Of a stretch of 32,000 nt of DNA, positions 604 through 24,231 are shown piece after piece. This DNA is from Formosa sp. Hel1_33_131 (lineage in GTDB: Bacteria; Bacteroidota; Bacteroidia; Flavobacteriales; Flavobacteriaceae). The DNA is taken from positions 1,380,001 to 1,412,000 of the forward strand of contig NZ_CP017260.1 in NCBI RefSeq assembly GCF_001735745.1, read 5' to 3'. How positions within the stretch are numbered: the stretch's first letter is position 1; every line of letters begins with the position of its first letter. The notes below the pieces were generated by a model that was not told the origin of the DNA, did no database searches, and was given only the letters and a program-made list of their open reading frames with translations. Position numbers and translations under genes: made by a program.

Positions 604-1602
604 ATGAATAAAATAGCTATAATTTTTGGAGGTGCCGGATACATTGGGACAAATCTCCTTAAGTTTTTAATAGAAAAAAAAGCATTCGAAAAATATTTTA
701 TATGTGACATCAAACCATTAGTTAGTTTTGAAGACGAAATTAAGAAAGGCAAAGTTGAGTATTTGCAATTAGATGTAAGAAATAACATTGATATTAAAAT
801 AAACGATATCAATGGTGCAACAAGTTGGATTTTTAATTTTGCAGCCATTCACAGAGAGCCAGGGCACAATTACTATGAGTATTTTGACACCAATGTCTCT
901 GGCACGGAAAATGTAAATGACTTTGCTCGACGTACAGGAATAAAGAATATTTTTTTCACAAGCAGTATAGCTCCCTATGGGAAATCCATGGAGCAAAGAA
1001 CAGAACAATCAGCTTTATACCCAGAAACTCCTTACGGCATATCAAAAGCATTTGCCGAAAAAACACACCAACAATGGCTAGCTGAAGATAATGACAGAAG
1101 ATTAATAATTGTTAGACCCAGTGTGATTTATGGACCGAAGGATCCAGGTAATGTTTATAGAATGATAAAGGCCTTGAAAAAAGGAACATTTGTTTTGCCT
1201 GATGGAGGAAAGGTGATTAAGTCTTATGGGTATATTTATGGGCTCATAGAAAGCATGTTGTTTACAATTGAACAAAAGAACCATATGATTATTTATAATT
1301 ATGCAGAAAACCCTGTAATCCCTTTGCATAAAATGACAACTGTTGTAAAAAAAGAATTAAACATAAAGAAACCGACTTTAAAATTACCGGTATGGTTATT
1401 AGCAATCATTGCAGGTGTCTTTCAAATAGGATTTAAACTTATAGGAAAGAAAAGTGACATCCACCCTGTCCGAGTTAGGAAAGCTGGGTTTCCTACGAAT
1501 ATTAAACCTCAATATTTGATAGATAATGGGTTCAAGTTTAAATATGAATTTCAAGAATCATTAAAGCATTGGAGGAAAGTTTCACCTAAAGATTTTGAAT
1601 AA
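604..1602 (+). CDS. NAD-dependent epimerase/dehydratase (SDR family)
   Basis: N-terminal Rossmann motif IIFGGAGYIGTNL. Catalytic YxxxK present as PYGISKAFAEK. The length (332 aa) and sugar-cluster context fit the family. Confidence 0.85.
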   Translation: MNKIAIIFGGAGYIGTNLLKFLIEKKAFEKYFICDIKPLVSFEDEIKKGKVEYLQLDVRNNIDIKINDINGATSWIFNFAAIHREPGHNYYEYFDTNVSGTENVNDFARRTGIKNIFFTSSIAPYGKSMEQRTEQSALYPETPYGISKAFAEKTHQQWLAEDNDRRLIIVRPSVIYGPKDPGNVYRMIKALKKGTFVLPDGGKVIKSYGYIYGLIESMLFTIEQKNHMIIYNYAENPVIPLHKMTTVVKKELNIKKPTLKLPVWLLAIIAGVFQIGFKLIGKKSDIHPVRVRKAGFPTNIKPQYLIDNGFKFKYEFQESLKHWRKVSPKDFE

Positions 1603-5308: not shown

Positions 5309-5321
5309 TTCAAACAGTATC

Positions 5322-6593: not shown

Positions 6594-6815
6594 ATAAGAA
6601 TGGGAAGAGATACTTTTATCTTCTTCATTATTGTCACTAAAAGACTTCAATTGTAACATCCAATACACAAAGGCAACCAATCCAATACTCATAAATATCC
6701 AAGACATAATGTTGGCGCCAAACCAGTTTTCTACCTCAAGGACTCTTAAAGCATCAAAGGGTGCTAACAATACAGTTTCGAAAAGGTCTTGAATGGCATT
6801 AAAAAAATCTTTCAT
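6588..6815 (-). CDS. Small membrane protein of unknown function
   Basis: 75-aa ORF with one clear TM helix (IMSWIFMSIGLVAFVYWML). Convergent with purD and overlapping its 3' end by 6 nt. No motif recognised. Confidence 0.55.
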   Translation of the reverse strand: MKDFFNAIQDLFETVLLAPFDALRVLEVENWFGANIMSWIFMSIGLVAFVYWMLQLKSFSDNNEEDKSISSHSYL

Positions 6816-6893
6816 CGGTCTTTAGTTTAAAGTTTTTGGGTTATAAAATGTCAAATGATACTGTTCCTTGACAAAACATTTTTATAATAACCT

Positions 6894-6914
6894 TATATTT
6901 ACGTGGCAAATATA
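6894..6914. promoter_or_regulatory. Palindromic pair of opposed -7-like boxes (TATATTTA ... CAAATATA)
   Basis: tatatttacgtggcaaatata. The plus strand reads TATATTTA, 27 nt before the ATG at 6928. The minus strand reads TATATTTG, pointing at the gene ending at 6815. This is a divergent intergenic region. Confidence 0.3.
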
Positions 6915-6927
6915 GTCAACACTTTAT

Positions 6928-7872
6928 ATGATTACAAGCTTTTTTAAAACATCTAAACCAATTCACTATATAATTTTCTTAGTTGTACTGATTTGTATGT
7001 TTGTATTTCAACGAATTATTACAGTTGATTACGAAGTAAATCTCTCCAACACTCTAAGGGAAGTAGGCTATCTTTCAATACTCTTGGCGTCTTTTTTTAC
7101 CTTAATTTTTATCGTCACCAAAAACAACTTAACCCACAACAATAGTTACGCCGCACTTTACTTTTGTTTGTTTATTGGACTCATGCCATCTTGCCTAGAA
7201 ACGAATTCTGTACTCATTTCAAACTTTTTTATACTGCTCTCACTTCGAAGAATCGTGAGTTTAAAAACCAATTCAAACATCAAAAAGAAACTATTAGATG
7301 CTTCTATGTGGATTTGTCTAGCAGCTATTTATGAACCTTGGGCTATTTTGTTCTTTGCAGTCTTATTTTTGGGGATGGTATTTTACTCCGTTGCTCAAAC
7401 AAAAAACACCGTCATTCCTTTTTGTGGGATTTTAGCCGTTGGAATACTTTTGACCTGCTATCGATTACTCACAAAAAATATGTTTCCAAACCTTATCGAA
7501 TATTTACCCACCATTAGCTTTGACACCTTTTCATTCAATAACACAATAATAGAGGCACAGTCCCTTCTATTCCTAGCCTTTGTTTTATTTGGGATTGGCA
7601 GTTTTATTGCAAAAGGATTTCTTAAAAACAGAGTAGTGAACCCTAGTTTTTCAGTACTTATTTTAGCAATTCTTACAGGAATTACCATTGTGTTTCTAAG
7701 TTCGAATCACGGTCTTGCAGGTTATTTGTTTGCGTTTGCACCTTCCGCGATTGTGTTGGCAAATTTTTCTGAAACGACCAAATATCGTTGGTTATCAGAA
7801 TTTGTTTTAGGAGTGTTGCTTTTTGCAGTGCTGTTTCAAGTTGGGCTGAATATTCCATTTCCGCTAAACTAA
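6928..7872 (+). CDS. Polytopic integral membrane protein, unknown function
   Basis: 314 aa, hydrophobic almost throughout, with at least 8 predicted helices by eye. No catalytic motif recognised. Confidence 0.7.
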   Translation: MITSFFKTSKPIHYIIFLVVLICMFVFQRIITVDYEVNLSNTLREVGYLSILLASFFTLIFIVTKNNLTHNNSYAALYFCLFIGLMPSCLETNSVLISNFFILLSLRRIVSLKTNSNIKKKLLDASMWICLAAIYEPWAILFFAVLFLGMVFYSVAQTKNTVIPFCGILAVGILLTCYRLLTKNMFPNLIEYLPTISFDTFSFNNTIIEAQSLLFLAFVLFGIGSFIAKGFLKNRVVNPSFSVLILAILTGITIVFLSSNHGLAGYLFAFAPSAIVLANFSETTKYRWLSEFVLGVLLFAVLFQVGLNIPFPLN

Positions 7873-7888
7873 ACTAAAGAATTACTCT

Positions 7889-7896
7889 TATATTTG
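7889..7896 (+). promoter_or_regulatory. Candidate -7 box (TATATTTG)
   Basis: Exact TAnnTTTG match 19 nt upstream of the ATG at 7915. The extended 12-mer tatatttgccac also occurs on the minus strand at 6903-6914. Confidence 0.35.
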
Positions 7897-7914
7897 CCAC
7901 ATAAATAAAATAGC

Positions 7915-8523
7915 ATGTTTTCAAACAAAGCCAATTCCATTTTTCAAGACGTTATAGCAACCTATAAAGTTTTAAATTCAGTTGATCAACCGTTTCAGAA
8001 TAAACACGATAAAGGCGAAGACCTTATCGGACATTTACTCTATAGAAAAAGTTGGATTGATACCGTTCAATGGGCTTATGAAGATATTATTAGAGATCCA
8101 AATATTGATCCTGTAGCAGCCTTAAAATTAAAACGAAAGATTGATGCTTCTAACCAAGATAGAACAGACACCGTTGAGTTTATCGACAGTTATTTTTTAG
8201 AGACCTACAAAAACGTTCAGGCGAAACCAACGGCCAAAATCAACTCTGAAAGTCCAGCATGGGTAATCGATCGCTTATCGATTTTAGCCCTTAAGATTTA
8301 CCACATGCAGCTTGAAACAGTTCGTGAGGATGCCACGGAAGCCCATAAACAAAGCTGTCAAACAAAGCTAAATACACTTTTAGAACAACGTACGGACTTG
8401 TCTACTGCCATTGACGATTTGCTAGAAGACATTGCCAACGGCGACAAATACATGAAGGTTTATAAGCAAATGAAAATGTATAATGACGATGAACTAAACC
8501 CCGTTTTAAGAGGAATTAAATAA
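7915..8523 (+). CDS. Soluble protein, probably DUF4254 family
   Basis: 202-aa hydrophilic ORF immediately upstream of a GT9 gene. From memory, DUF4254 proteins of about 200 aa are the usual neighbour of GT9 genes in Bacteroidota. The family name has not been verified by search. Confidence 0.65.
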   Translation: MFSNKANSIFQDVIATYKVLNSVDQPFQNKHDKGEDLIGHLLYRKSWIDTVQWAYEDIIRDPNIDPVAALKLKRKIDASNQDRTDTVEFIDSYFLETYKNVQAKPTAKINSESPAWVIDRLSILALKIYHMQLETVREDATEAHKQSCQTKLNTLLEQRTDLSTAIDDLLEDIANGDKYMKVYKQMKMYNDDELNPVLRGIK

Positions 8524-8532
8524 TTTATTTTA

Positions 8533-9549
8533 GTGTCGGATCTCAAACACATACTTGTCATAAGACTCTCCTCCATGGGAGATGTTGCAATGACCGTTCC
8601 GGTACTGACCGCTTTCTCAAACGCAAATCCCACTATTAAACTCACGGTGTTGACCAAAAAACAGTTTACACCACTGTTTAAAGATTTGAAAATGGTGACC
8701 GTTCTTTCTGCAGATTTTAACACCACTCACAAAGGAGTTCTTGGATTATATCGACTTTCAAAAACAGTGCGAAACACCCACATAGACGCTGTTGCAGACT
8801 TGCACAACGTATTGCGAACAAAGGTTCTAAAACTCTTTTTGCCAGGTCTTAAGTTTACTCAAATAGACAAAGGCCGCGCTGAAAAAAAGGCATTAATCAC
8901 AGGAAAAATAAGCACGCCATTACGCACAACGCCACAACGCTATGCGGATGTTTTTAGAAATCTAGGTTTTGAATTTGAAATAGACACCCCTTCTTTTCCC
9001 ACCCCCAAACCATTAGATACTGAAATCACAAAAGTACTTGGAGATTTTTCAAAACCCGTTATTGGAATTGCGCCTTTTGCGGCCTATGCTTCCAAAACCT
9101 ATCCCATTTCAAAAATGGACAAAGTCATTTTTGAACTCCAAAAAGAGTCGAAAATTTTATTATTCGGAGGGGGACCAACTGAAACCAAACAATTAGAAAC
9201 CATCGCGTCTAAATATTCAAACGTAGGTTGTGTGGCGGGGAAGTTCAGCTTAGATCAAGAATTAGATATTATTTCTAATTTAAAAGTAATGCTCTCTATG
9301 GATTCTAGTAATGGACACATGGCAGCAATGCTTGGGGTAAAAGTAGTGACGCTTTGGGGAGTCACACATCCCTTTGCGGGATTTGCACCGTTTCATCAAT
9401 TGGCGACCCATAACCTACTATCCGATTTAGGAAAATATCCTAAAATCCCAACATCAATTTACGGAAACAACTATCCAGAAGGGTATGAGTTAGCGATGCA
9501 AACCATTTCAGTTGAGAGTATTATAAAAACGGTTCAAGACACGCTTTAA
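8533..9549 (+). CDS. Glycosyltransferase family 9 (heptosyltransferase-like)
   Basis: N-terminal ILVIRLSSMGDVAMTVPVL resembles the RxxxxGD motif of GT9. C-terminal block ISNLKVMLSMDSSNGHMAAMLGVKVVTLWG. GTG start. Confidence 0.8.
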   Translation: MSDLKHILVIRLSSMGDVAMTVPVLTAFSNANPTIKLTVLTKKQFTPLFKDLKMVTVLSADFNTTHKGVLGLYRLSKTVRNTHIDAVADLHNVLRTKVLKLFLPGLKFTQIDKGRAEKKALITGKISTPLRTTPQRYADVFRNLGFEFEIDTPSFPTPKPLDTEITKVLGDFSKPVIGIAPFAAYASKTYPISKMDKVIFELQKESKILLFGGGPTETKQLETIASKYSNVGCVAGKFSLDQELDIISNLKVMLSMDSSNGHMAAMLGVKVVTLWGVTHPFAGFAPFHQLATHNLLSDLGKYPKIPTSIYGNNYPEGYELAMQTISVESIIKTVQDTL

Positions 9550-10795: not shown

Positions 10796-13321
10796 TTGAA
10801 AAACATTTTTAATTATATAGTTGTTGGGATTATAATAGTCTTAACTGTTACAAGTTGTTCTAGGAAAAAAGATAGATTCCTGAACCGTGCTTGGCATTCC
10901 GTAAACACAAAGTACAATATCCTCTATAATGGGAATGTAGCTTTGGAATCGGGAAAAACTTCTGTCATTGCTGCATATAAAGACAATTATTGGGAAATTC
11001 TTCCTGTGGAGCGTTTACAAATCACCGATGACATTGATTTCAGGAACAAAGCAAAAAACCTAAGCATTGAACTTGCGGAAGTAAAAGCCGTGAAAGCCAT
11101 CCAAAAACACGGGATGAATATTAAGGGAAAAGAAAAAAATCCTCAAATTGATGAAGCTTTTATGTTATTGGGCAAAGCCCGTTATTTCGACAATCGTTTT
11201 ATTCCCGCATTAGAGGCGTTTAATTATATTTTGTTTAAATACCCTGCAAGTAACAATATTAACTTAGCAAAAATTTGGCGAGCCAAAACCAATCTTCGCC
11301 TCCAAAACGAAGACATAGCGATTAAAAACCTGAAGAGACTTATTGAATTAGAAGACTTGTCCAAATACGATATCGTTGAAGCATCCTCGACCTTAGCACA
11401 AGCTTACATTACAACCAAAGCCTTGGACAGTGCGATTACCCAGTTACAAGTGGCATCGCAGCTGACGAAAAATAACGAACAACGTGGGCGTTTACATTTT
11501 ATAGAAGGTCAGCTCTATTCCGCTTTAGGGAAAAAAGACAGTGCCAACCTTGCGTTTGATAAAGTGATTGACCTCAATCGGAGATCACCAAGAGCCTATA
11601 TGATTAGTGCGCATTTAGAGAAAGTCAAAAATTTTGACCTCAAAAACGGTGATAAACTTGAACTTCAAGAGCTGTTAGAAGATTTGGAAACCAACAGAGA
11701 AAACAGACCTTTCTTAGATAAAATCTACCATCAAATCGCGAAGTATCAACTTCAGAACGAATCGGATTCAACAGCCATATCCTATTTCAATAAATCGCTG
11801 CGAACCAATTCCGAAGATGACTATTTGAAAGCGGTAAACTATCAAACCTTAGGAGATTTAAACTTTGATTATTCGGAGTACAGTTTGGCAGGATCTTATT
11901 ATGACAGCACCTTATTAAGCCTTAAAGAAAACAGCAAATCGTTTCGCGCCATTAAACGTAAACGAGAGAATTTAGAGGATGTCATTTATTACGAATCCAT
12001 TGCTCAAGATAATGACAGTATTTTAAGTGTTGTAGCCATGTCAGACGCTGATAAAGAAGTGTACTTCCAATCCTATATTGAGACCTTAAAACTAGAAGAA
12101 GAAGTATCAGAAAAAGTAGCTGCTTCCACTGGAAATTCTTTTGGAGCCTCTCAAAATGCAGTCACAAAAAAGGGAAAATCCTTTTATTTTTACAACCCAA
12201 CAACTGTGGCATTTGGCAAAAATGAATTTATTAGAATATGGGGCGATCGCGCTTTAGAAACCAATTGGCGTTGGTCTAGTAAATCTGCACAATCTGACAC
12301 AGAAACAACGGATGAAATAGAAAAGGCTGCAGAAGCCGCGGAAGAGGAAGAACAAAAACGTTATTCAGTGGATTATTATCTAGCGCAAATCCCAACCGAA
12401 GAAAAAGTATTGGACAGCATCGCTAAAGAACGCAATTTTGCCTATTACCAATTGGGACTTATATATAAAGACAAGTTTAAGGAGTATAAACGCGCACAGA
12501 ATAAGCTCGAATACTTATTGAAACAAAACCCTGAAGAGCGCCTTGTGTTGCCAGCAAAATACAACCTCTACAAATTATATGCGCTGTTAGATTTGAAGCG
12601 CTTGCAAGCACTTGCCAAAAGCGATATTATTGAGAACTTCCCAGATTCTCGATATGCTGAAATTTTGTTAAACCCAGAATCAGCCTTGTTAAATAACGAA
12701 AATAGCCCCGAAACACTTTACAATAATTTATATGCGCAGTTTGAGTTGGGAGAATACCAACAGGTCATTGATGGGTGCGATCTACAAATTATTAGACTTG
12801 ATGGCGATCAAATTGTACCCAAGCTAGAACTTTTAAAAGTAACCTCCAAAGCTCGGTTGTTTGGTTTTGAGGCTTATAAAGAAGGACTCAACTTTGTAGC
12901 CTTAAACTACCCAAGCAGCATCGAAGGGAAAAAAGCCGCTCAAATGTACGAAACAGTCATTCCACAGCTAGAAAGTGTGGAGTTTGTTCAGGACTCAACC
13001 CAAACGAATTTCAAAACTATTTTTAAATTTGAAGCGTCAGAAACCGATGAAATCAAGGCGTTTGATGAATCCTTAAGCACTGCTATTGAAGATATTGACT
13101 ATTTTAAATTGAGCATTTCAAAAGACCGTTACGATACAAACACTATATTTGTAGTGGTTCATGGACTAAAAAGTGTCCAAGGTGCCTTTGGATTTGCTGA
13201 AATATTAAAAAACAAAAATGACTTTATAATATCTAAACCATTTTTTGGAATTTCTTCCAAAAATTATCAAACCGTTCAAATACATAAAAACCTAGAAGCC
13301 TACCTAGAAACCATTAATTAA
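10796..13321 (+). CDS. sprE: Type IX secretion/gliding lipoprotein PorW/SprE-like (TPR-containing)
   Basis: Lipoprotein signal (IIIVLTVTSC). 841 aa with TPR-like helical repeats and an acidic linker (EKAAEAAEEEEQK). From memory, sprE lies just upstream of a bactofilin gene and the atp operon in Flavobacterium johnsoniae, as it does here. TTG start. Confidence 0.7.
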   Translation: MKNIFNYIVVGIIIVLTVTSCSRKKDRFLNRAWHSVNTKYNILYNGNVALESGKTSVIAAYKDNYWEILPVERLQITDDIDFRNKAKNLSIELAEVKAVKAIQKHGMNIKGKEKNPQIDEAFMLLGKARYFDNRFIPALEAFNYILFKYPASNNINLAKIWRAKTNLRLQNEDIAIKNLKRLIELEDLSKYDIVEASSTLAQAYITTKALDSAITQLQVASQLTKNNEQRGRLHFIEGQLYSALGKKDSANLAFDKVIDLNRRSPRAYMISAHLEKVKNFDLKNGDKLELQELLEDLETNRENRPFLDKIYHQIAKYQLQNESDSTAISYFNKSLRTNSEDDYLKAVNYQTLGDLNFDYSEYSLAGSYYDSTLLSLKENSKSFRAIKRKRENLEDVIYYESIAQDNDSILSVVAMSDADKEVYFQSYIETLKLEEEVSEKVAASTGNSFGASQNAVTKKGKSFYFYNPTTVAFGKNEFIRIWGDRALETNWRWSSKSAQSDTETTDEIEKAAEAAEEEEQKRYSVDYYLAQIPTEEKVLDSIAKERNFAYYQLGLIYKDKFKEYKRAQNKLEYLLKQNPEERLVLPAKYNLYKLYALLDLKRLQALAKSDIIENFPDSRYAEILLNPESALLNNENSPETLYNNLYAQFELGEYQQVIDGCDLQIIRLDGDQIVPKLELLKVTSKARLFGFEAYKEGLNFVALNYPSSIEGKKAAQMYETVIPQLESVEFVQDSTQTNFKTIFKFEASETDEIKAFDESLSTAIEDIDYFKLSISKDRYDTNTIFVVVHGLKSVQGAFGFAEILKNKNDFIISKPFFGISSKNYQTVQIHKNLEAYLETIN

Positions 13322-13333
13322 AACACGACAGCT

Positions 13334-13759
13334 ATGTTTACAGAGAACAAAAAATCAAATTCGAATACATTTTCGCAACAAAATACCATCGCTCAAGGGA
13401 CCACCTTTACGGGCGATTTAATCAGCGAAGGCGACTTTCGTATCGAAGGGATTATCAACGGATCATTGAATACTTCAGGGAAAGTTGTCATCGGGAAAAC
13501 AGGTTCGGTTGAAGGCTTTTTAACTTGTGCTAATGCGGATGTGGAAGGGAAGTTCAAAGGGACGTTAAACGTTTCCGACACGCTTAACTTACGTTCTTCT
13601 GCATATATAGATGGGGAAGTGCAAATAGGGAAACTATCTGTGGAGCCTGGTGCAACCTTTAACGCAAGCTGTCTTATGAAAGGTTCTGTAAAAGAATTGA
13701 AAAACGAAACAAAAGTAGACACATCTCAAAACAATTCAAAAAGTGGACAATCCGCTTAA
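13334..13759 (+). CDS. Bactofilin (polymer-forming cytoskeletal protein)
   Basis: Repetitive beta-helix pattern of G-x-hydrophobic turns (GDLISEGDFRIEGIINGSLNTSGKVVIGKTGSVEGFL...VEGKFKGTLNV...IDGEVQIGKLSV). Confidence 0.8.
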   Translation: MFTENKKSNSNTFSQQNTIAQGTTFTGDLISEGDFRIEGIINGSLNTSGKVVIGKTGSVEGFLTCANADVEGKFKGTLNVSDTLNLRSSAYIDGEVQIGKLSVEPGATFNASCLMKGSVKELKNETKVDTSQNNSKSGQSA

Positions 13760-13958
13760 ACAACTCGGAATTCTATCTGCGATAGGTGTTCAGATGGCAG
13801 CAATCATTGCTGTAGGGACATTTGTAGGGGTCAAGCTCGATGAAAAACACCCTAACGACACTAATCTTTTTACGTTAATAGGCACTTTATTTTCAGTAAT
13901 CCTATCAATTTATTTTGTGATAAGACGTGTTATTTCGGCTTCAAAAGATGATAAATAA
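13743..13958 (+). CDS. AtpZ/AtpI-like small membrane protein
   Basis: 71 aa with two TM helices (ILSAIGVQMAAIIAVGTFVG; LFTLIGTLFSVILSIYFVI), at the head of the atp operon. The GTG start overlaps the bactofilin 3' end by 17 nt. Confidence 0.6.
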   Translation: MDNPLKQLGILSAIGVQMAAIIAVGTFVGVKLDEKHPNDTNLFTLIGTLFSVILSIYFVIRRVISASKDDK

Positions 13959-14390
13959 ATGAATACACTCTTTAAAAAAAGAGAATTAGACTTTCTCATT
14001 AAATTGTCGGTAATAAGTATATTGCTCTTTGGAGTGCATAGCTATCTAAATTACCATTTCGCACAAGATATCTTACTTTTTTTCCCACTCTGGCATATTT
14101 ATTTATTTCATGTGGTGACCGTTTTGTTGATTTATTCTTTCATAAATTACCGCGACTCCATAGGAAAAACAGAAGTGTTTAATGTCTTTATGCTTGGGAT
14201 GCTTTTAAAAATGATTCTAGTTATTGTTTTTCTATTGCCATGGCTTTTATCTAAGCCTGAACAACAAGGATATGATTTAACGAACTTTTTCGTTCCATAT
14301 TTTATTTTATTGGCTTTTGAAGTGTATTCTGTGACGGAATTTCTTCAAAAAAACGAACCACTTGATACCACTCCAAAAGGCGACAAATAA
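13959..14390 (+). CDS. Membrane protein of unknown function preceding atpB
   Basis: 143 aa with four hydrophobic helices. The ATG abuts the upstream stop. The position corresponds to an ATP synthase protein-I-like slot. Confidence 0.6.
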   Translation: MNTLFKKRELDFLIKLSVISILLFGVHSYLNYHFAQDILLFFPLWHIYLFHVVTVLLIYSFINYRDSIGKTEVFNVFMLGMLLKMILVIVFLLPWLLSKPEQQGYDLTNFFVPYFILLAFEVYSVTEFLQKNEPLDTTPKGDK

Positions 14391-14422
14391 TCATTTAAAT
14401 ATTATTTGTCATTTCATTAAAT

Positions 14423-15553
14423 GTGTGTACATTTGCAGCAAAATTAATCAAGGTATTTTTAATTAAAAGCAGCGTATTGAACTCCTTTAGAACCGTATTA
14501 TTCTCAACATTATTTTTAGCAATTTCTTTTGTGGGTTTTGCCAAGGAAAACGAACCAACTCAAGATGATGCGCCTTTTGATCCAAAAGCGATGATTTTAC
14601 ATCACGTAAAGGATGCGCATGAGTTTCATTTATGGGACTGGAAAGGAACCCCTGTATCACTATCATTACCAATTATATTGTGGACAGACAATGGGATAAC
14701 AACATTTTCTTCAAGTCAATTTCACCATGATGATGAAGGTAAAACAATTGTGCAAGCAAACGGTGGGAGCTTTGTTAAATTACACGAAAAAATTTATCAA
14801 TTAGAGGCCGGCGCTACTGCCGTCGCTTATGATGCAGAACACCACCCAACAAATGCACATAAACCTCTAAATTTTTCAATTACCAGAAACGTATTTATGA
14901 TGTGGGTTTCTGTGGCACTGCTATTATTGATATTCTTAACAACTGCAAGAAGCTACAAAAAGTCTAAAGATGGTGTCCCAACAGGGATTGCTGGATTTAT
15001 GGAGCCCTTAATTGTATTTGTAAGAGATGAAATTGGCAAACCAATGATTGGTGAGCACAAGTATAAAAAATACATGCCTTATTTGTTAACCATCTTTTTC
15101 TTTATTTGGATCAATAACATTTTTGGGTTGATTCCAATTTTAAATGGAGCCAACTTAAGTGGTAACATAGCCTTTACGTTTACACTCGCAATGTTTACAT
15201 TTATAATTACAACGTTTAGTGGTAACAAAAATTACTGGAAACACATCTTTTGGATGCCAGGAGTTCCTGTGCCAATGAAAATATTTTTAATGCCTATTGA
15301 GATTATTGGAATGTTCGTCAAACCAATCTCGTTAATGATTCGTTTGTTTGCCAACATTACAGCAGGACACGTTATCATATTGGCATTGATGTCATTAATA
15401 TTTGTATTTAAGTCGGTTGCGATTGCTCCCGTCTCTGTAGCGTTTTCGTTATTTATTACAGTAATCGAAATTATTGTTACAGCAATACAAGCGTATATAT
15501 TTACAATATTGTCAGCCCTCTATTTTGGAATGGCAACAGAAGAAGAACATTAA
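14423..15553 (+). CDS. atpB: F0F1 ATP synthase subunit a
   Basis: C-terminal core with the conserved Arg helix (LMIRLFANITAGHVIILAL). Long N-terminal extension with a signal-like segment. The start is uncertain: a TACATTTG -7 box at 14428-14435 lies inside the ORF, so the in-frame TTG at 14477 (MNSFRTVLF...) may be the real start. Confidence 0.9.
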   Translation: MCTFAAKLIKVFLIKSSVLNSFRTVLFSTLFLAISFVGFAKENEPTQDDAPFDPKAMILHHVKDAHEFHLWDWKGTPVSLSLPIILWTDNGITTFSSSQFHHDDEGKTIVQANGGSFVKLHEKIYQLEAGATAVAYDAEHHPTNAHKPLNFSITRNVFMMWVSVALLLLIFLTTARSYKKSKDGVPTGIAGFMEPLIVFVRDEIGKPMIGEHKYKKYMPYLLTIFFFIWINNIFGLIPILNGANLSGNIAFTFTLAMFTFIITTFSGNKNYWKHIFWMPGVPVPMKIFLMPIEIIGMFVKPISLMIRLFANITAGHVIILALMSLIFVFKSVAIAPVSVAFSLFITVIEIIVTAIQAYIFTILSALYFGMATEEEH

Positions 15554-18598: not shown

Positions 18599-18933
18599 AT
18601 GTCTTTAAATAACAGTCCTATACGAGTAAAGAGTTTTTAGTTTGCTTGTGAGATTGTTCATTTTACGGATAAATTAAAAAAAATAAGGATTTTGAGTTAG
18701 CTTCTCAATTGCTAAAAAGCGGAACGAGTATTGGAGCCAATACAAGAGAAGCTCAAAGAGGAGTTAGTAAAAAGGACTTTAAAAATAAATTTGGAATTGC
18801 TTTAAAGGAAGCTGATGAGACCAAATATTGGTTAGAAATTCTTGAAGCTACAGGAAGAGAAGTTCCAACAGAAATGATGAATAAGTGTGAAGAGTTAATA
18901 AGAATTTTAGTAGCAATCATTAAAAACTCATAA
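18599..18933 (+). pseudogene. Four-helix-bundle protein (23S rRNA intervening-sequence protein family), disrupted
   Basis: The 3' part (ORF 18709-18933) reads QLLKSGTSIGANTREAQRGVSKKDFKNKFGIALKEADETKYWLEIL, the hallmark core of this family. The 5' part is in another frame from the ATG at 18599 (MSLNNSPIRVKSF*FACEIVHFTDKLKK). There is an in-frame TAG at 18638-18640 where family members have SFEFA. A frame change in the A8 run (18676-18683) is also needed. Confidence 0.7.
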
Positions 18934-19810: not shown

Positions 19811-19861
19811 TGGTTTAATTTATACTTATAAACAAGTCGCCTAAAAAGCCTTGTACTTGTC

Positions 19862-19882
19862 AAGCTGAACTCGTTTCAGCTT
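19862..19882. terminator. Hairpin between convergent genes (possible bidirectional terminator)
   Basis: aagctgaa (19862-19869) and ttcagctt (19875-19882) form a perfect 8-bp stem with a 5-nt loop. It sits between the atpG stop and the stop of the minus-strand gene at 19907. The flanking T/A tracts are modest. Confidence 0.4.
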
Positions 19883-19906
19883 CCCATGTTTTGTTTATAA
19901 CGAACA

Positions 19907-20473
19907 TTAAAAAGTATACCCAACCCTTAAATGGAGGTCCAAAGCCGTTTCAGTTTTATTAGAAGTAAATCCATATTGTTTTAAGAAATACTTCCTAAAA
20001 CCGATTCCAATGCCCAACTCATAAGTGAAATGGTTCCCAACAGTTCTTTTAATTCCCCACTTAGGGATTAATGAAAAATTTTCAGCTATAGAAACGCTTT
20101 CAATGCTTGAAATCACAAACGCATCAGGCGTGTAATTTAATTTTAAACTTAAGAAATTCCCTGAGTTCTTTAAAATCGATTGGTCGTTATTGAAGCGTTT
20201 ATTCAAATTGTAATAGAACCGAGGTTCTAAATTCAACGTTGGAAACAAAATAAAATTTACATTCTTATAATAATCACCTCCAAAAAGACCGGTATCTAAG
20301 CCTATTTCACTTCTTAAAGCGATGCTATTGGACAGTCTTGTTTCATTATGAATCCAAACACCGAAAAACCCTGTTTGAATTCCATTAATTGATTTTTCAA
20401 CACTGGCATTTTTTTGTGCTTCTGTTGTAACTGAAAATAGAATTACAGAAAGTATTAGATATAGATGTTTCAT
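19907..20473 (-). CDS. Outer-membrane beta-barrel protein (small porin-like)
   Basis: Signal peptide MKHLYLILSVILFSVTTEAQ. Alternating amphipathic strands. C-terminal LHLRVGYTF, ending in Phe as is typical for OMPs. Confidence 0.65.
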   Translation of the reverse strand: MKHLYLILSVILFSVTTEAQKNASVEKSINGIQTGFFGVWIHNETRLSNSIALRSEIGLDTGLFGGDYYKNVNFILFPTLNLEPRFYYNLNKRFNNDQSILKNSGNFLSLKLNYTPDAFVISSIESVSIAENFSLIPKWGIKRTVGNHFTYELGIGIGFRKYFLKQYGFTSNKTETALDLHLRVGYTF

Positions 20474-20488
20474 GTGTTTGTATTTTAG

Positions 20489-21022
20489 TTATAATTTAAA
20501 CCCTAGTGACAGTCCGATACTAGAGATGAGATAATTTGAATTTGTTTCCTCGATCATTAAAAACTCCTTGCTTTTCACAAAGGCTTCAACCACATATTGA
20601 ACACGATAATCACTTTCAAAAGTATAGCCAATCCCTAATTTTGAGCTGTATCCTTTTGAGAATCCACTTATATTCAAGCTTTTCCCTGCGTTTAATAAAA
20701 CATAAGGACTGTTGATCCCATATTCTTTCAAATACCATTTTACATCTCCAACAATTGGGATGGACTTATAGTCGTCTTTAACATTAAAAGCGATGCCAAC
20801 CCCCAGAGAAATACTGAGCGTCTTAAAAACAAATACACCATTGAATGTACTTAATTCAATACCAAATCCTTCATTGACAACGATGGCTTGGTTGGAGTAA
20901 TTACTTTCTTTATTGGCAAAAATCTCTAAGGTGGTTGTGTTCGTAAACACGCTTTGATTCGCTTCACCTTGAGAGAGACAAAGGGAAGGGAAAATTAAAA
21001 ATAAGAGATATACGGTTTTCAT
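20489..21022 (-). CDS. Outer-membrane beta-barrel protein (small porin-like)
   Basis: Signal peptide MKTVYLLFLIFPSLCLSQ. Beta-strand-rich sequence ending GLSLGFKL. The start is placed at the ATG at 21022; the upstream TTG extension is encoded by the repeat. Confidence 0.6.
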   Translation of the reverse strand: MKTVYLLFLIFPSLCLSQGEANQSVFTNTTTLEIFANKESNYSNQAIVVNEGFGIELSTFNGVFVFKTLSISLGVGIAFNVKDDYKSIPIVGDVKWYLKEYGINSPYVLLNAGKSLNISGFSKGYSSKLGIGYTFESDYRVQYVVEAFVKSKEFLMIEETNSNYLISSIGLSLGFKL

Positions 21023-21065
21023 GACGTAGAATAGATTTGGGATCAATTCTTAATGCAAAGTAAGA
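21016..21065. repeat. Direct repeat copy A (promoter/5'UTR/start-codon module)
   Basis: ttttcatgacgtagaatagatttgggatcaattcttaatgcaaagtaaga. It differs from 24225-24275 by 2 substitutions and one 1-nt indel. It contains the CAT (ATG on the minus strand) of the OMP gene and a near-consensus -7 box (TTACTTTG on the minus strand). Confidence 0.85.
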
Positions 21066-21079
21066 TAACGATTTAGATT

Positions 21080-21889
21080 TCACCATCGTACTTGATAAGG
21101 ATAGGGTTCATAAATTTCGTTGGCTTCATTTATAGTATTGCCCAGTTGAGCATCGCGTTTAGCCGCTTCCATAGTTGTTTTTGATTCTTTATATTTTTCC
21201 AAACGCATCAAGCAAATTGCTTTATAATATTTCGCATCGGAAAAATTAGGGTACTGTTCAAGGGATTTATCAAACTGAAATATAGCGTCCTCCCACATCC
21301 CTTGTTCATACATACTTATACCATAATAGAAAATATCTAAAAAATGCGCCTCTCCCCATTGTTTTTCTTGCGCTATAATGTCCGTTTTAAAAATAGCTTC
21401 TGCCTTTTTGTATTCATTTAACTGTAAATAGCACAGTGCAATATGAAATTGATAGGTGTGATCCTGCACATAGCTATAGCCATCCATTTGAACACATAAC
21501 TCAAAATCTTTAAGAGCTTCTTTATACTGTTTAGAAAAAATACACTTGATAAATGCTCTATAGCTTAACCAGCGTTCTGGCTTATAAAAAACGGCTTTAT
21601 CTAAATATGCCATACCAACTTCATACTTTCTTGCTTTAAAATAAGGCATTGCTTTTTGCTGCCAAAAATAAGCGACAGTACTATCGACTTTGATTCCCTC
21701 ATCTAAGCAATTTTGCCACTCCTGCATCTGATAATTATAGTTGAATTTTTCAGCACAATTGTAAACATATTTTTCAATGAGTCCTTCTTGTCGTAATTCT
21801 TTTTCTTTTGCGGTTTCAGTATGAGAATCCTTTTGCCCTTCACATTGCATAAAAATAAAGGACAGGATAATTAGTGTTAATTTATTCAT
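21080..21889 (-). CDS. TPR-repeat lipoprotein
   Basis: Lipobox LSFIFMQC. At least three or four TPR-like units (AYFWQQKAMPYFKARKYEVGMAYLDKAV; YQFHIALCYLQLNEYKKAEAIF; FYYGISMYEQGMWEDAIFQFDKSL; AKYYKAICLMRLEKYKES). The ATG overlaps the end of the upstream ORF by 8 nt. Confidence 0.75.
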   Translation of the reverse strand: MNKLTLIILSFIFMQCEGQKDSHTETAKEKELRQEGLIEKYVYNCAEKFNYNYQMQEWQNCLDEGIKVDSTVAYFWQQKAMPYFKARKYEVGMAYLDKAVFYKPERWLSYRAFIKCIFSKQYKEALKDFELCVQMDGYSYVQDHTYQFHIALCYLQLNEYKKAEAIFKTDIIAQEKQWGEAHFLDIFYYGISMYEQGMWEDAIFQFDKSLEQYPNFSDAKYYKAICLMRLEKYKESKTTMEAAKRDAQLGNTINEANEIYEPYPYQVRW

Positions 21890-22760
21890 TAGTTTTGAGT
21901 GGGTTTAATTTGGTGAATTCTTTGTAAGTAAAATTATAGGGTTGATTTCGGTATGAAAATTCTGTAAACGTATAGCCATATTTTTTGCAACTTCTAACAC
22001 ACATATCACTGATCGTTTCAAAAACAGAAATACTGTTTTTAGTTAACACCTTTTCTATACCACCATAGTGTTTTATAACATTATTAAAAGTGTTTATATC
22101 TAAGTTGTATTTTATTAAATAAAAGCCAATTCTCCCTATTGCTTCATGTGCTTGTCGCTTATCAAAACAGTTATTAGAAATACAATTATCTAAACAGAGA
22201 ATAGTGGTGTAGTACGTATATAGGGCATGAAAAAGAATATAGAAACTTCTATATTCTTTGGGGTTGTTTACGATGCTTTTAATATTTAAATTTTCATCAA
22301 TTAGAAAATAGTCTTTTCTTTTAAAGGTAATAGTGGTCATAATAATATGACCGGTTTGATGCGCAATGTCATCCACAAAAAAAACTTCATCATACTCTTT
22401 TTGAAATACATTTAAAAAAGCCATGCCATGGGCATTAATAGTAGCAAATGAATTTGTATTTTTTGGGTCTGTTTTAAATAGGAGTATTTTTTTACAACAT
22501 TGTTCAATTAAATTATAATGATTGGAGGAGTATTTTTTTATATATGACAAGGCAATTGTTAAGGACTCTTCGTGAACTTCTACTAATTCCTTTGATATAG
22601 TTATTTTACGTTCCTCAATTGGCTGTTCATTAAAATCTCTGAAAATATATTTCAAGTAGATTATAGGGTATTGTATCAGTTCAATGTTGGTATGTGCTAT
22701 GAATTTTATTTTCTCAAATGGAATAGATTCATTAACTTTAAAATATCCAATATTTGGCAC
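21882..22760 (-). CDS. Unknown protein with HQTGH...H motif (possible HExxH-type peptide-modification domain); probably the C-terminal part of a split gene
   Basis: 292-aa ORF with a GTG start. FVDDIAHQTGHIIMT (H134/H138, nt 22347-22361) is followed about 40 aa later by NNPKEYRSFYILFHALYTYY. This resembles my recollection of the HExxH-domain family layout, but with Gln in place of Glu. The frame is open upstream as far as the A7 tract shared with the 75-aa ORF. Confidence 0.55.
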   Translation of the reverse strand: MPNIGYFKVNESIPFEKIKFIAHTNIELIQYPIIYLKYIFRDFNEQPIEERKITISKELVEVHEESLTIALSYIKKYSSNHYNLIEQCCKKILLFKTDPKNTNSFATINAHGMAFLNVFQKEYDEVFFVDDIAHQTGHIIMTTITFKRKDYFLIDENLNIKSIVNNPKEYRSFYILFHALYTYYTTILCLDNCISNNCFDKRQAHEAIGRIGFYLIKYNLDINTFNNVIKHYGGIEKVLTKNSISVFETISDMCVRSCKKYGYTFTEFSYRNQPYNFTYKEFTKLNPLKTNE

Positions 22761-22776
22761 ATAAGCTATCCCATCC

Positions 22777-23004
22777 CTACTGTATGAATGGGTTAATTTC
22801 TTCTTTTTTTATAAAATAGCCCTGTAGCATCTCCTCTAGAGCTTCTTTAGGGTACGAATTGTAGCTTTTTGAGTTAAAATAAGCAAATAATAATGGCTCT
22901 AAAAAAACTTCATCATCATCAAAATTTAGTTTTTTAAAAACACTTGTATTCTCTTTATATAATAACAGTTTAATGGTATTAATAATTTCGTCTCTATTTT
23001 TCAT
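22777..23004 (-). CDS. 75-aa ORF, probably the N-terminal fragment of the gene continuing at 22760
   Basis: The ATG at 23004 lies 12 nt after the CPBP stop. The ORF ends 18 nt past an A7 run (plus-strand T7 at 22804-22810). The downstream ORF's frame opens exactly at that run. No motif recognised. Confidence 0.45.
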   Translation of the reverse strand: MKNRDEIINTIKLLLYKENTSVFKKLNFDDDEVFLEPLLFAYFNSKSYNSYPKEALEEMLQGYFIKKEEINPFIQ

Positions 23005-23016
23005 TTTTTTTAATCC

Positions 23017-23610
23017 TTAAATTAAATTAAACACAATTATCGACATATTATAAAATGAGTGAATTAGAATCGTCTGAATTAAATTTTTATTTCTGAAATA
23101 AATAAAAGTAGTTACCAATCCAAACACAAAATGGGTAATATAAATATCAGGTAGATGAGATATAGCAAAATATGATGCTGACAGTAAAATAGCCAAATAT
23201 GGCTTTAACTTAAGTTGCAAAAGGTTTTTAAAGACAATTTTTTTATTAAAAATCTCTTCTATAATTGGAACCGCAAATAAAACATAAATAAGCCTTGAAA
23301 AATCAAAGGTTGGTTTTTCTAATGGTTTAAAAAGATGAAATTCTGAATAGTAACTAAAAAACAACACTACACTTATACCAAGGGAAAAAAGGATTTCATT
23401 GAAACTGATTTTGTTACTTTCTAATTTAAAAATATTTATTTTAAAAGCTATATAGAACACAATAATATGAGAAATTATAACCCCGAAATAAGATAATAAA
23501 TTTGTTGTTTTTATGTTTTCATTGCCAAAATGAACACTTAAAAGGACACTCAAAACACTTAGAAATGGAAGTAGTAAGCATAGTGTCAATATTTTAAAAG
23601 ACAATTTCAT
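23017..23610 (-). CDS. CPBP family intramembrane glutamic endopeptidase (CAAX protease/Abi, bacteriocin-immunity-type)
   Basis: Six or more TM helices. Motif 1 PIIEEIFNK (EExxxR-like). Motif 2 YFAISH (FxxxH). Motif 3 IHSFYN (HxxxN). Confidence 0.8.
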   Translation of the reverse strand: MKLSFKILTLCLLLPFLSVLSVLLSVHFGNENIKTTNLLSYFGVIISHIIVFYIAFKINIFKLESNKISFNEILFSLGISVVLFFSYYSEFHLFKPLEKPTFDFSRLIYVLFAVPIIEEIFNKKIVFKNLLQLKLKPYLAILLSASYFAISHLPDIYITHFVFGLVTTFIYFRNKNLIQTILIHSFYNMSIIVFNLI

Positions 23611-23626
23611 ATAAATGTTTTTATAA

Positions 23627-23658
23627 AAAAAGATGATTTAATAAAAAACCATCTTTTT
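23627..23658 (-). terminator. AT-rich hairpin plus T-run between the peptide gene and the CPBP gene (possible attenuator)
   Basis: On the minus strand: AAAAAGATG-14 nt loop-CATCTTTTT, running into TTTTTTTAT. Plus-strand arms are 23627-23635 and 23650-23658. The stem is weak (mostly A-T). Confidence 0.3.
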
Positions 23659-23669
23659 ATTTAACTTAT

Positions 23670-23876
23670 CTACATACATTGAAAATAATGGGCTATTGCA
23701 TTACCAAGTTTTAGCCACGAAGAAGCCATTCCATCTCCTGGTGCACTAGTGTCTGCATTTTGGTGACTACAAGGATGACAATCGTTTGCTGTTCCACCAG
23801 AAATGGTGTTCAATAATTCTTCTGAAGCTACTGCTCCAGCTCTTTCTTTGAGAGCGTCTAATGATAATTTACTCAC
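23670..23876 (-). CDS. Candidate precursor peptide with double-glycine-type leader (bacteriocin/RiPP-like)
   Basis: 68 aa with a GTG start. Leader MSKLSLDALKERAGAVASEELLNTISGG, with hydrophobic residues at -4 and -7, Glu at -9/-10 and Ser at -11 relative to the GG. The 40-aa core is TANDCHPCSHQNADTSAPGDGMASSWLKLGNAIAHYFQCM. The gene is followed by a protease-family gene. Confidence 0.55.
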   Translation of the reverse strand: MSKLSLDALKERAGAVASEELLNTISGGTANDCHPCSHQNADTSAPGDGMASSWLKLGNAIAHYFQCM

Positions 23877-24009: not shown

Positions 24010-24231
24010 TTAAATCTCAAAATTGTAACCTGCCTCTGTATATATATAACACTGAGAATGTTTACAATATAGGATGGGTGCGCCCCGATCTCTTAATTCA
24101 GCGATCAGCCTGTAAACAGTGGCAACAGAAACATTCAATTTTTCAGCTAATTGTAAAGGCGTACCAGTTGCTTCCCTTTGGATCAATGAATGAAGGCATT
24201 TTATTCTTTCTATGTGCGTGTATATTTTCAT
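24010..24231 (-). CDS. Small helix-turn-helix DNA-binding protein (HTH_11/DeoR-N-like)
   Basis: 73 aa. GTPLQLAEKLNVSVATVYRLIAELRDRGAPI is a classic winged-HTH segment of the kind found at the N-terminus of WYL/DeoR-type regulators. Confidence 0.7.
   Translation of the reverse strand: MKIYTHIERIKCLHSLIQREATGTPLQLAEKLNVSVATVYRLIAELRDRGAPILYCKHSQCYIYTEAGYNFEI

Follow-up and report, generated by a model that had tools for sequence, protein, structure and literature searches.

Introduction

The aKG-HExxH oxygenases (TIGR04267 / IPR026337), among them ChlB (PDB 8s5f), BpmH/BipH, PflC/PosC and PesO, are recently recognised enzymes encoded beside ribosomal precursor peptides. Their reactions include hydroxylation of His, Asp, Phe, Gln and Pro as well as oxidative backbone cleavage. 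The targets described for the characterised members are cyclophane peptides, Phe, Gln/ARMD or Pro, and PflC is reported to have a peptidase side-activity. Iron is bound by the HExxH motif (PMC13060819) and alpha-ketoglutarate (aKG) by positively charged residues (PMC12614342), in a fold that has been likened to that of zincins (PMC12636437).

Here we analyse an interrupted gene in the window, that is, the whole 32-kb stretch of DNA under study. Its protein belongs to a clade that we call HQxGH and resembles the aKG-HExxH oxygenases in overall fold over ~370 residues. The blocks follow each other in the same order and in register: an HxxxH helix, R-x2-Y-x3-H and a conserved Arg. HQxGH proteins are likewise encoded next to precursor peptides, and part of the clade matches the family HMM end to end. 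However, the clade carries Gln for the motif Glu (109/113), and the window protein and many of its relatives lie below or outside the curated model. The cassette partners (CPBP, TPR lipoprotein, C39-ABC/HlyD) and a GG-x4-Cys-His motif also differ from those of the described members. To our knowledge, no activity has been reported for HQxGH proteins and no member of the clade has been studied. Literature searches on HQxxH and on this Flavobacterium cassette type found nothing relevant.

Three other kinds of system invite comparison. Zincin (HExxH) metallopeptidases show a distant fold likeness, with an HxxxH helix followed by a helix bearing a further ligand, but the HQxGH protein lacks the catalytic Glu and has no significant peptidase match. 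From the established role of that Glu, zincin-type hydrolysis is not expected. Class II-type GG-leader systems are alike in the GG-terminated leader, in the C39-ABC and HlyD-like genes of complete cassettes and in a CPBP protein, a kind often linked to bacteriocin loci; the HQxGH cassette adds a dedicated modifying enzyme and an invariant Cys-His after the GG. Bufferins are MNIO-modified, Cys-containing, exported copper-binding RiPPs (PMC12452194). They serve as no more than an analogy: there too an enzyme of the non-haem-iron type goes with a small peptide that is exported and bears a conserved Cys-containing motif, and the Tat-like signal and conserved tail of the Rhizomicrobium-type precursor (see below) add to the likeness. 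The enzyme family (MNIO/DUF692) is unrelated, and the likeness says nothing about metal binding by an HQxGH product.

Results

One gene in two pieces

The 75-aa ORF and the 292-aa ORF belong to a single gene (Table 1), as a sequence-only reading of this DNA had proposed. A homologue search returned 436 proteins, nearly all of them single chains of 366-383 aa covering 97-100% of the joined sequence. In a representative search the 292-aa part was always aligned from about residue 90-140 of proteins of ~370-415 aa, and across the searches the homologues numbered in the hundreds, as single proteins of ~370-410 aa. The ORF positions given in the sequence-only reading, together with the TAA at 22811-22809 that closes the 292-aa frame and the plus-strand T7 at 22804-22810, agree with the coordinates; the 75-aa frame stops 18 nt past GAA GAA. 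The intact product is 374 aa long, with the junction ...GYFIKKEEIITHSYSRDG.... Its N-terminal part is conserved (P37 in 110/113 homologues) and belongs to one confident predicted fold.

Table 1. Positions of the features discussed, in window coordinates
Feature	Position	Strand	Remarks
Segment in place of L003's C39-ABC exporter and HlyD-like genes	19848..21066	.	two ORFs (185, 188 aa)
TPR protein, 269 aa, lipoprotein-type N-terminus (...FMQC)	21080..21889	-	start overlaps enzyme stop by 8 nt; kept in cassette
292-aa ORF	21882..22760	-	first possible start of the 3' part is the GTG at 22760
3' part of enzyme gene, other frame	21882..22808	-	open from 22808; encodes residues 73-374 of the intact protein
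HEAIGR block, E288 (104/113) and R292 (113/113)	22131..22148	-	R292 pairs with PesO Arg
Second conserved block RSFYILFH (R253...Y256...H260)	22227..22250	-	aligns with RPLYGIYH of PesO
HQTGH motif, H216-H220 of the intact protein	22347..22361	-	aligns with the iron-binding HExxH of aKG-HExxH enzymes
5' fragment of enzyme gene (75-aa ORF)	22777..23004	-	residues 1-70 authentic; last 5 (NPFIQ) out of frame past the deletion
Site of frame-breaking 2-nt deletion	22795..22796	-	relatives read GAAATAATAACC; window reads GAAAT--TAACC
A7 tract (plus-strand T7)	22804..22810	-	wild-type length, identical in intact alleles
CPBP / Rce1-like intramembrane protease, 197 aa	23017..23610	-	ends 12 nt ahead of enzyme gene start
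68-aa precursor peptide, leader SKLSLDALKERAGAVASEELLNTISGG	23670..23876	-	GG at 23793-23798; core TAND-Cys-His, CH at 23775-23780
Small HTH_11 regulator	24010..24231	-	upstream of precursor

The lesion and the A7 tract

Alignment of the DNA with that of relatives located the break. Between 22796 and 22795 the window lacks 'AA' (GAAATAATAACC -> GAAATTAACC), and this deletion, 8 nt 3' of the A7 tract and outside any homopolymer run, is the sole frame-breaking difference. Three relatives (L001, L002 and L003) are 97-99% identical; two of them, L001 and L002, are intact and encode 374 aa. These intact alleles (protein P0001 on both) are 98-99% identical and come from two independent short-read metagenomes. 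The interruption had earlier been placed at the A7 tract itself, with a repaired product of 373 aa (...IKKKKLTHSY...); both proposals fall with the position of the deletion and with the junction of the intact relatives. An ancestral state with one A fewer was also rejected, as the intact alleles carry A7 and the extra 'AA'.

The tract reads A7 in the window, L001, L002 and L003. Being of the same length in intact and broken alleles, it is neither the lesion nor a variable switch. The comparison of tract lengths that the sequence-only reading had called for thus turned against its on/off switch; the other two options it had offered, a pseudogenising lesion or a sequencing artefact, are kept, at another site and as a 2-nt deletion. 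Runs of A7 or longer occur 38 times in the window, three of them within the enzyme gene alone. With a constant tract length and a break found in no close relative, the locus shows neither hallmark of a phase-variable gene or programmed frameshift.

The gene has features expected of a recent pseudogene: near-identical relatives are intact, and the lesion disrupts a conserved single-domain protein. It falls between the N-terminal 70 residues, which are conserved, and the catalytic part of what is a single fold, and the enzyme left to the window lacks its first 82 residues or else all that follows residue 70. All other sizeable ORFs of the window have full-length domain matches, and comparison with L002 revealed one other indel in 2.5 kb, which is intergenic.

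Fold and enzyme family

Structure prediction and a Foldseek search, both suggested by the sequence-only reading, connected the intact protein with solved structures. The AlphaFold (AF2) model has a pLDDT of 96.8 and a pTM of 0.94. Against the PDB, its best match was 8s5f, the HExxH domain of the aKG oxygenase ChlB (E 7e-9, probability 1.0, TM 0.57-0.63 over ~370 columns), with a sequence identity of ~12%. SjiH (22ob) followed at E 2e-7, and the next match had E 0.2. The model thus has the ChlB HExxH-domain fold, and nothing beyond 8s5f and 22ob was significant; matches to true peptidases stayed at E >= 0.2 and TM <= 0.3. A literature search on SjiH found no relevant paper. The PDB was also searched by sequence, using the full family profile, the single member P0254 or a domain-only profile of the subgroup nearest to TIGR04267. 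These searches gave chance-level matches and did not reach 8s5f, so that it is the fold search that ties the protein to solved structures.

A profile search of the repaired protein had been proposed as a check on its kinship with the mod_HExxH family (TIGR04267). The window protein itself, under either repair, and P0001 gave no TIGR04267 match at E <= 10 or E <= 1, and the repaired protein had no match in Pfam or NCBIfam, peptidase families included. The homologues did make the connection: 61 of 113 matched TIGR04267 at E <= 1, the best at E 1.1e-13, and one subgroup matches the model end to end with 17-36 bits. Among 20 members scanned singly the maximum was 36 bits, against a curated cut-off of 40 bits. 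As the best E-value corresponds to about 52 bits by scaling, at least one clade member passes that cut-off; the window protein fails it, and most clade members are also below it. An hhalign comparison with PesO gave 96.4% probability and E 1.4e-9, placing HQTGH on HEASH and pairing R253, Y256, H260 and R292; the PesO sequence used is approximate, since it was stitched from machine-read supplementary DNA (PMC13060819) with frame errors. Homologues, profile alignment and fold together support the enzyme as a divergent relative of the aKG-HExxH (TIGR04267 mod_HExxH) peptide-modification enzymes, and the family guess made from sequence was a good one.

Conserved motifs

The window protein does not carry a literal H-E-x-x-H but HQTGH. 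As Gln stands in place of the motif Glu in 109 of 113 members (Glu in 1/113), HQxGH marks a clade; the protein P0268 reads HEGAH. The placement of this motif on the HExxH position, proposed from the letters alone, is confirmed by the profile alignment, and the Arg...His stretch pointed out there is indeed the second conserved block of the family, RSFYILFH falling on RPLYGIYH. The three histidines numbered H134, H138 and H178 in the 292-aa ORF (H216, H220 and H260 of the intact protein) were singled out for a conservation check, which they pass: H216 and H220 are each kept in 110/113 homologues and H260 in 109/113. R253 is likewise kept in 109/113, and R292 is the sole invariant residue (113/113). 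The downstream Arg/His block and the further Arg of the family are therefore present, R253, H260 and R292 pairing with R, H and R of PesO. R292 is a candidate aKG-binding residue by analogy with the positively charged residues of the family (PMC12614342).

Cassette and precursor peptides

The clade comprises 523 clusters at 50% identity. Across Bacteroidota its cassette consists of one or more precursors, sometimes a CPBP protease, the enzyme, a TPR lipoprotein, a C39-ABC exporter and an HlyD-like protein, in a gene order common to F. okayamense, a Flavobacterium MAG and Paludibacter. The C39-ABC exporter is found in 34/48 species loci. In 40 loci the enzyme gene is accompanied by one to seven small ORFs with the leader, which makes these RiPP-type clusters. 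The window follows suit, as had been predicted, with a 68-aa GG-leader precursor in the same cassette.

All 67 matches to the leader HMM carry GG-x(3-10)-Cys-His, and a leader-only HMM in which the Cys-His columns were left out gave the same result. Three non-Bacteroidota loci (one of them Rhizomicrobium) share the GG...Cys-His motif, with other partners. The precursor of the Rhizomicrobium type bears a Tat-like signal and its tail is conserved; in the proteobacterial type the peptide motif is NGG-xxM-DCH. Loci without any C39 exporter retain the GG-x4-CH motif, suggesting that the GG may be part of enzyme recognition and not only a cleavage site.

The window locus has no C39-ABC/HlyD exporter pair. 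Where L003 carries its exporter segment, the window has one whose 185- and 188-aa ORFs have no homologue in any other cassette. The L001 and L002 contigs end short of the exporter position, and an exporter could lie elsewhere in the genome. The precursor start codon, ATG in the three relatives, is GTG in the window. GTG is a usable start codon.

Discussion

We think that 21882-23004 on the minus strand is probably one oxygenase-like gene of the HQxGH clade, inactivated by the 2-nt deletion within a decaying GG-peptide cassette, and that recent inactivation is its most likely history. This would make the lesion a real mutation in the organism. The deletion could also have arisen in sequencing or assembly, in which case the organism would carry the 374-aa gene whole and its enzyme would work. 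Such an error would fit a lone lesion in a gene that is near-identical elsewhere, AT-rich and of low complexity, and frame breaks, maybe errors, occur in the related metagenome assemblies L003, L042 and L051 (in the last two at homopolymer runs). However, the missing bases lie outside a homopolymer run and two are gone, not one; no other gene of the window is broken, and the one further indel against L002 is intergenic. The same locus moreover shows two more changes that would suit a loss of function, the missing exporter pair and the GTG start. We consider an artefact unlikely, though worth keeping in mind.

Two further readings would leave the window with an active enzyme. The break might be bypassed in the cell, by loss of an A in the A7 tract (through RNA polymerase slippage or mutation) or by a +1 ribosomal shift within 22780-22808, giving a low-level or switchable gene. 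The tract does lie inside a 29-nt zone open in both frames, and loss of one A would offset the deletion (net -3 nt), yielding a 373-aa protein with residues 68-71 alone changed, in what the predicted model shows as a loop. Yet the tract is A7 in all four alleles, the intact ones included, and does not vary in length; seven A's are short for efficient slippage, and this genome has many A7 runs. A -1 shift on A_AAA_AAA, considered as a rescue, was rejected, as the frame it enters stops at once. As the break is confined to the window allele and none of the close relatives shares it, there is no reason to expect a selected recoding signal, and we find a bypass very improbable. Still harder to credit, to the point of being barely tenable, is an enzyme that is naturally in two parts, with a 75-aa and a 292-aa polypeptide coming together in the active form. 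The ORFs do lie on the same strand and overlap by a few codons, but essentially all homologues are single chains and the 98%-identical relatives are unbroken. The start of the 292-aa ORF is an internal Val codon 11 residues past the break, at the cost of residues 71-82, and the break falls inside one compact predicted fold.

A different objection concerns the clade as a whole. HQxGH proteins might not be oxygenases: while keeping a zincin-like fold, they could be catalytically inert or work without redox chemistry, for instance as chaperones or scaffolds that bind peptides, or as Lewis-acid enzymes. The clade as a whole has given up the motif Glu, its matches to the family HMM are weak, and among zincin proteases HQxxH variants are usually regarded as inactive. 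On the other hand, both motif His residues, H260, R253 and R292 are kept in 96-100% of the homologues and are matched by identical residues in an active hydroxylase, which argues for a retained metal and co-substrate site. The reported role of the motif is iron binding (PMC13060819), and its His residues are plausible ligands. The strict co-occurrence with an invariant substrate Cys-His also fits catalysis at a defined site, and we judge loss of oxygenase activity across the clade decidedly unlikely. It may nevertheless be that the chemistry differs from hydroxylation, or that the cofactor set differs, given the Gln in nearly all members.

In its intact form the gene encodes a 374-aa cytoplasmic enzyme of a large clade that is kin, by fold and by sequence, to the Fe(II)/alpha-ketoglutarate 'aKG-HExxH' peptide oxygenases. 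Taking HQxGH proteins as oxygenases, and judging from residue conservation, H216 and H220, probably with H260, would hold a mononuclear metal, and R253 and/or R292 would bind alpha-ketoglutarate. We hypothesize that the enzyme identifies its substrate, the adjacent GG-type precursor, by the conserved leader and oxidises it on or beside the invariant Cys-His, ~4 residues past the GG, so that Cys-His (Cys33/His34 in the 68-aa precursor) would be the site of modification. In complete cassettes the product would then be cut after the GG and exported by the C39-peptidase ABC transporter with its HlyD-like partner, while the CPBP membrane protein and the TPR lipoprotein may serve processing or immunity.

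It is tempting to go further and propose that HQxGH proteins together with GG-x(3-10)-Cys-His peptides make up a class of ribosomal peptide modification that has not been described before, reaching from Bacteroidota to Alphaproteobacteria, in which a Glu-less enzyme of zincin fold would bring about a transformation at Cys-His not yet reported for the aKG-HExxH family. We advance this tentatively, putting its chances a little short of even. For instance, Cys, His or both might be oxidised or cross-linked, which could give rise to a metal-binding site. Product roles would then differ through variable tails (in Bacteroidota, with C39-ABC export) or conserved tails (in the proteobacterial type, with an aldo-keto reductase).

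A Glu-less branch with a conserved target of its own is a lead to further chemistry and bears on the role of the motif Glu in aKG-HExxH oxygenases. It also offers a simple, testable substrate rule, an invariant Cys-His soon after the GG leader, for which natural variants exist. Since the curated aKG-HExxH model mostly misses the clade and Pfam gives no coverage, genome mining with that model would under-sample it.

For the window, reading the locus as a decaying cassette corrects its annotation: one gene, inactivated by a 2-nt deletion and not governed by a homopolymer switch, at a locus from which the exporter has been lost. With a broken enzyme, no exporter pair at the locus and a GTG start on the precursor, we propose that the pathway is dead or dying there. 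Damaged copies are also found in other species (loci L019, L042, L045 and L051).

The enzyme gene and the site of its interruption

The two ORFs of 75 and 292 aa (see table) are parts of one gene, as the sequence-only reading had proposed. Its ORFs, its position of the A7 run, the TAA (22811-22809) that closes the large-ORF frame, which is open beyond, and the stop of the small ORF 18 nt after GAA GAA all match the sequence. With one A removed, a reading frame of 373 aa results. The joined protein, used as a query, returned 436 homologues, nearly all of them single chains of 366-383 aa with 97-100% query coverage. In a separate scan of 1.8 billion representatives, which gave 523 clusters, the 292-aa part always aligned from about residue 90-140 of proteins of about 370-415 aa.

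The interruption had been placed at the A7 tract, and this placement did not hold. The closest relative, P0001 (374 aa, 98% identical), is encoded by loci L001 and L002, short-read metagenome contigs from different samples, and its junction reads ...GYFIKKEEIITHSYSRDG..., so that the small-ORF frame is kept through A7 and the large-ORF sequence is entered only afterwards. When the window was aligned with its three closest loci (L001, L002 and L003), the A7 length was identical in all four sequences, and two bases were missing in the window alone (relatives GAAGAAATAATAACCC, window GAAGAAAT--TAACCC). The gap lies between 22796 and 22795, 8 nt 3' of the tract, and no alternative placement yields the window sequence. 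The junction IKKKKLTHSY of the earlier reading is thus not that of the ancestral protein; it is what would arise if the 2-nt deletion were compensated by the further loss of an A. L003 carries frame errors of its own near the 3' end, and ATP synthase genes are fragmented in its source assembly.

Coordinates of features in the window and in related loci
Locus	Feature	Position	Strand	Remark
Window	Regulator	24010..24231		
Window	Precursor	23670..23876		
Window	CPBP (Rce1-like intramembrane protease)	23017..23610		
Window	Small ORF, 75 aa	22777..23004	-	ORF calling
Window	A7 run	22804-22810	-	sequence
Window	Large ORF, 292 aa	21882..22760	-	ORF calling
Window	TPR lipoprotein	21080..21889		start overlaps enzyme stop by 8 nt
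Window	1.2 kb in place of exporter segment	19848-21066		
Window	74-aa ORF	18709-18933	+	
L003	Exporter segment, 3.5 kb	11943-15441		
L003	4.7-kb insert	4264-8994		
L042 (MAG)	Damaged enzyme gene	about 4155-4200		frame break at A-run, same loop
L051 (MAG)	Damaged enzyme gene	about 7105-7145		T-run frame break and internal deletion
L045, F. xanthum DSM 3661	Damaged enzyme gene	1-1081		5' half lost
L019, F. hercynium DSM 18292	Damaged enzyme gene	7013-8041		conserved C-terminus lost; no exporter nearby
L055	NGG-xxM-DCH peptide region	6262-6603		
L056	NGG-xxM-DCH peptide region	about 6225-6600		
L057	NGG-xxM-DCH peptide region	1983-2210		

A Glu-less branch of the aKG-HExxH family

The HQxxH motif first noticed in the product is a clade signature and no private substitution, since Glu occupies the second motif position in one member only (P0268) of an alignment of 113 diverse homologues. 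In this alignment, numbered as in P0001, H216, H220 and T264 are conserved in 110 sequences, Q217, R253 and H260 in 109, G219 and E288 in 104, and R292 in all 113; a C-terminal NQPYNF...F...N block is likewise conserved.

Neither the repaired protein, for which an HMM search had been suggested, nor P0001 matched Pfam or NCBIfam. Scanned singly, 61 of the 113 homologues matched TIGR04267 mod_HExxH ('aKG-HExxH-type peptide beta-hydroxylase'); the lowest E value was 1.1e-13. In the subgroup that is most distant, each of the ten members aligns over the full length of the 177-position model, scores 17-36 bits (cut-off 40) and places HQxGH at about model position 65-70. One of this subgroup, P0223, reads HQCGH, yet it bears the JGI label 'HEXXH motif-containing protein'.

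Structure prediction and Foldseek, also suggested earlier, led to the same family. The very confident AlphaFold2 model of the intact allele (pLDDT 96.8, pTM 0.94) has its N-terminal 70 residues folded with the rest. Only two PDB targets were significant: 8s5f, entitled 'HExxH domain of ChlB, a novel alpha-ketoglutarate dependent oxygenase' (E 7e-9, probability 1.0, TM 0.57-0.63, about 370 columns, 12% identity), and 22ob, SjiH-Ni (E 2e-7). Zincin peptidases came next in the list, at non-significant E values of 0.2 or more. The alignment was also compared by hhalign with PesO, a characterised aKG-HExxH proline beta-hydroxylase (PMC13060819), whose sequence is approximate because it was rebuilt from machine-read DNA with frame errors in the supplement of that paper. 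Against this approximate sequence (96.4% probability, E 1.4e-9, 170 columns), DDIAHQTGHII pairs with EWLIHEASHNR, EYRSFYILFHALYTY with ELRPLYGIYHGCFVS, and R292 with an Arg of PesO.

In enzymes of the aKG-HExxH family, the HExxH motif binds iron (PMC13060819) and positively charged residues bind aKG, the latter according to a statement in PMC12614342 that cites Morishita 2024. Their fold is reminiscent of zincins, and for one of them, PflC, any Lewis-acid metal enables the hydrolysis of truncated substrates (PMC12636437). The HQxGH clade would have kept the metal and co-substrate sites and lost the general base of zincin type. By strict membership, the window protein escapes the curated HMM and is devoid of the literal HExxH sequence. 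Its fold, the order of its conserved blocks and its genomic context place it with the aKG-HExxH family as a distinct Glu-less branch, and to that extent the kinship suggested in the sequence-only reading stands.

Precursor peptides and the Cys-His rule

The proposed pairing of the enzyme with a GG-leader peptide was borne out in the window and beyond. An HMM of the leader detected 61 non-redundant peptides, which come from 40 loci (1-7 per locus) and whose common leader has the form (M)SKLSLDALKERAEAxASEELLxTISGG. A Cys-His follows GG by 3-10 residues in all 61 (spacer of 4 in 41) and occurs twice in seven; the position before Cys is mostly taken by Asp, Ser, Gly or Glu, and the peptides have hypervariable tails. 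This first HMM took in the Cys-His columns; the search was redone with a leader-only model, and Cys-His was present in 67 of 67 matches at E <= 0.1, the single flagged exception reading GGGWSDCH. Pfam and NCBIfam recognise none of the precursors. At five loci (L017, L018, L021, L022 and L024; Kordia, Aureivirga, Mucilaginibacter), the precursor lies downstream of the enzyme, at about 8200-8400, and its motif is doubled (for example DCHTDDCH or SCHGNNCH).

Outside Bacteroidota, the subgroup nearest TIGR04267 is represented by L055 (Rhizomicrobium), L056 (unattributed metagenome contig) and L057 (unclassified bacterium), where an aldo-keto reductase follows the enzyme and no exporter is present. 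A small ORF upstream of the enzyme carries ...NGG(S/T)(L/F)MDCH... and then a conserved tail, FxEATGIWxPELxPVFxRxDAxLxF; in the Rhizomicrobium peptide, a Tat-like signal (SRRGTLK) precedes the motif. As the same peptide motif stands beside differing partners, the pairing of HQxGH enzyme and GG-x4-Cys-His predates the other cassette members, and Cys-His, perhaps with GG, is therefore likely to be the site of recognition and modification. The enzyme family is a variant of the known aKG-HExxH kind whose substrate rule is clear-cut and open to experiment. We found no description of an HQxGH/Cys-His family in the literature searched, which is no proof that none exists.

The cassette in related genomes

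The scan of species-representative genomes gave 48 loci, all in Bacteroidota (Flavobacterium, Kordia, Aquimarina, Chryseobacterium, Pedobacter, Mucilaginibacter, Saprospiraceae, Taibaiella, Chryseolinea, Polaribacter and Paludibacter among them). The best match was just 57% identical, so the species of the window is absent from the scanned set. L004 (F. okayamense), L005 (Flavobacterium MAG) and L006 (Paludibacter) share one gene order: regulator, small peptide(s), (CPBP), enzyme, TPR protein, C39-peptidase ABC exporter, HlyD-like. The exporter gene lies in the fetched flank of 34 of the 48 loci, several others ending too early to tell; none was found in the flanks of the three Kordia loci. 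In P0003 (626 aa, from an 81% identical relative, on a 2348-nt JGI contig), CPBP protease and HQxGH enzyme read as one fusion, which, if true and no read-through error, would speak for joint action of the two at the membrane.

Damaged enzyme genes were found in at least 4 of the 48 species loci (see table). Loss of the accessory system seems to recur across species, although the breaks in L042 and L051 could be assembly errors.

Probable decay of the cassette in the window

In L003, which is 97-98% identical, a segment with C39-ABC exporter and HlyD-like genes follows the TPR gene. The window has in its place two ORFs (185 aa and 188 aa) without counterpart in any of 50+ related loci, and a C39-ABC gene is found nowhere in its 32 kb. 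The similarity between these two is only weak (25% identity, E 0.03), as is a match of the 188-aa ORF to DUF6705. The precursor start codon (23874-23876, minus strand) is GTG in the window versus ATG in L001, L002 and L003; this second alteration of the locus could reduce expression.

The indirect evidence speaks for a real 2-nt deletion rather than a sequencing artefact. Two bases were deleted outside any homopolymer run; only one other internal indel separates 2.5 kb of the window from L002, and it is intergenic (23632). The other sizeable ORFs of the window all have full-length domain matches, which leaves the enzyme gene as the only visibly broken one in 32 kb, and the exporter replacement and the GTG start are two further changes in the same direction. 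The A7 tract had also been offered as an on/off switch, a role that the alleles do not support. Its length is the same in broken and intact alleles, and relatives show no variation in it; runs of A7 or longer are ordinary for a window of 36% GC, which contains 38, three of them within the enzyme gene. A full-length product would require a +1 ribosomal shift or slippage loss of one A, and neither has support, while the frame reached by a -1 shift on A_AAA_AAA stops immediately. The local event is probably an ordinary pseudogene.

GC content is 0.23-0.29 in the cassette (enzyme and CPBP genes, 21900-23700), against about 0.36 for the window and 0.35-0.39 for flanking housekeeping genes, which fits an accessory, possibly transferred, island beside the atp operon. 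Between HTH regulator and precursor, L003 has an insert absent from the window, with two small Cys-rich ORFs of 46 aa (MNLFCGGSECCDEVQTYDNCGD...) and 69 aa (...MVMGGDGTSGSGRCNTQCDGESGPSDC...) that may belong to another peptide system. An odd insertion in the atp operon of the window, flanked by the genes for ATP synthase alpha and gamma, is a 74-aa ORF whose L003 counterpart is marked PF05635 (23S rRNA intervening-sequence protein); the window copy may be shortened.
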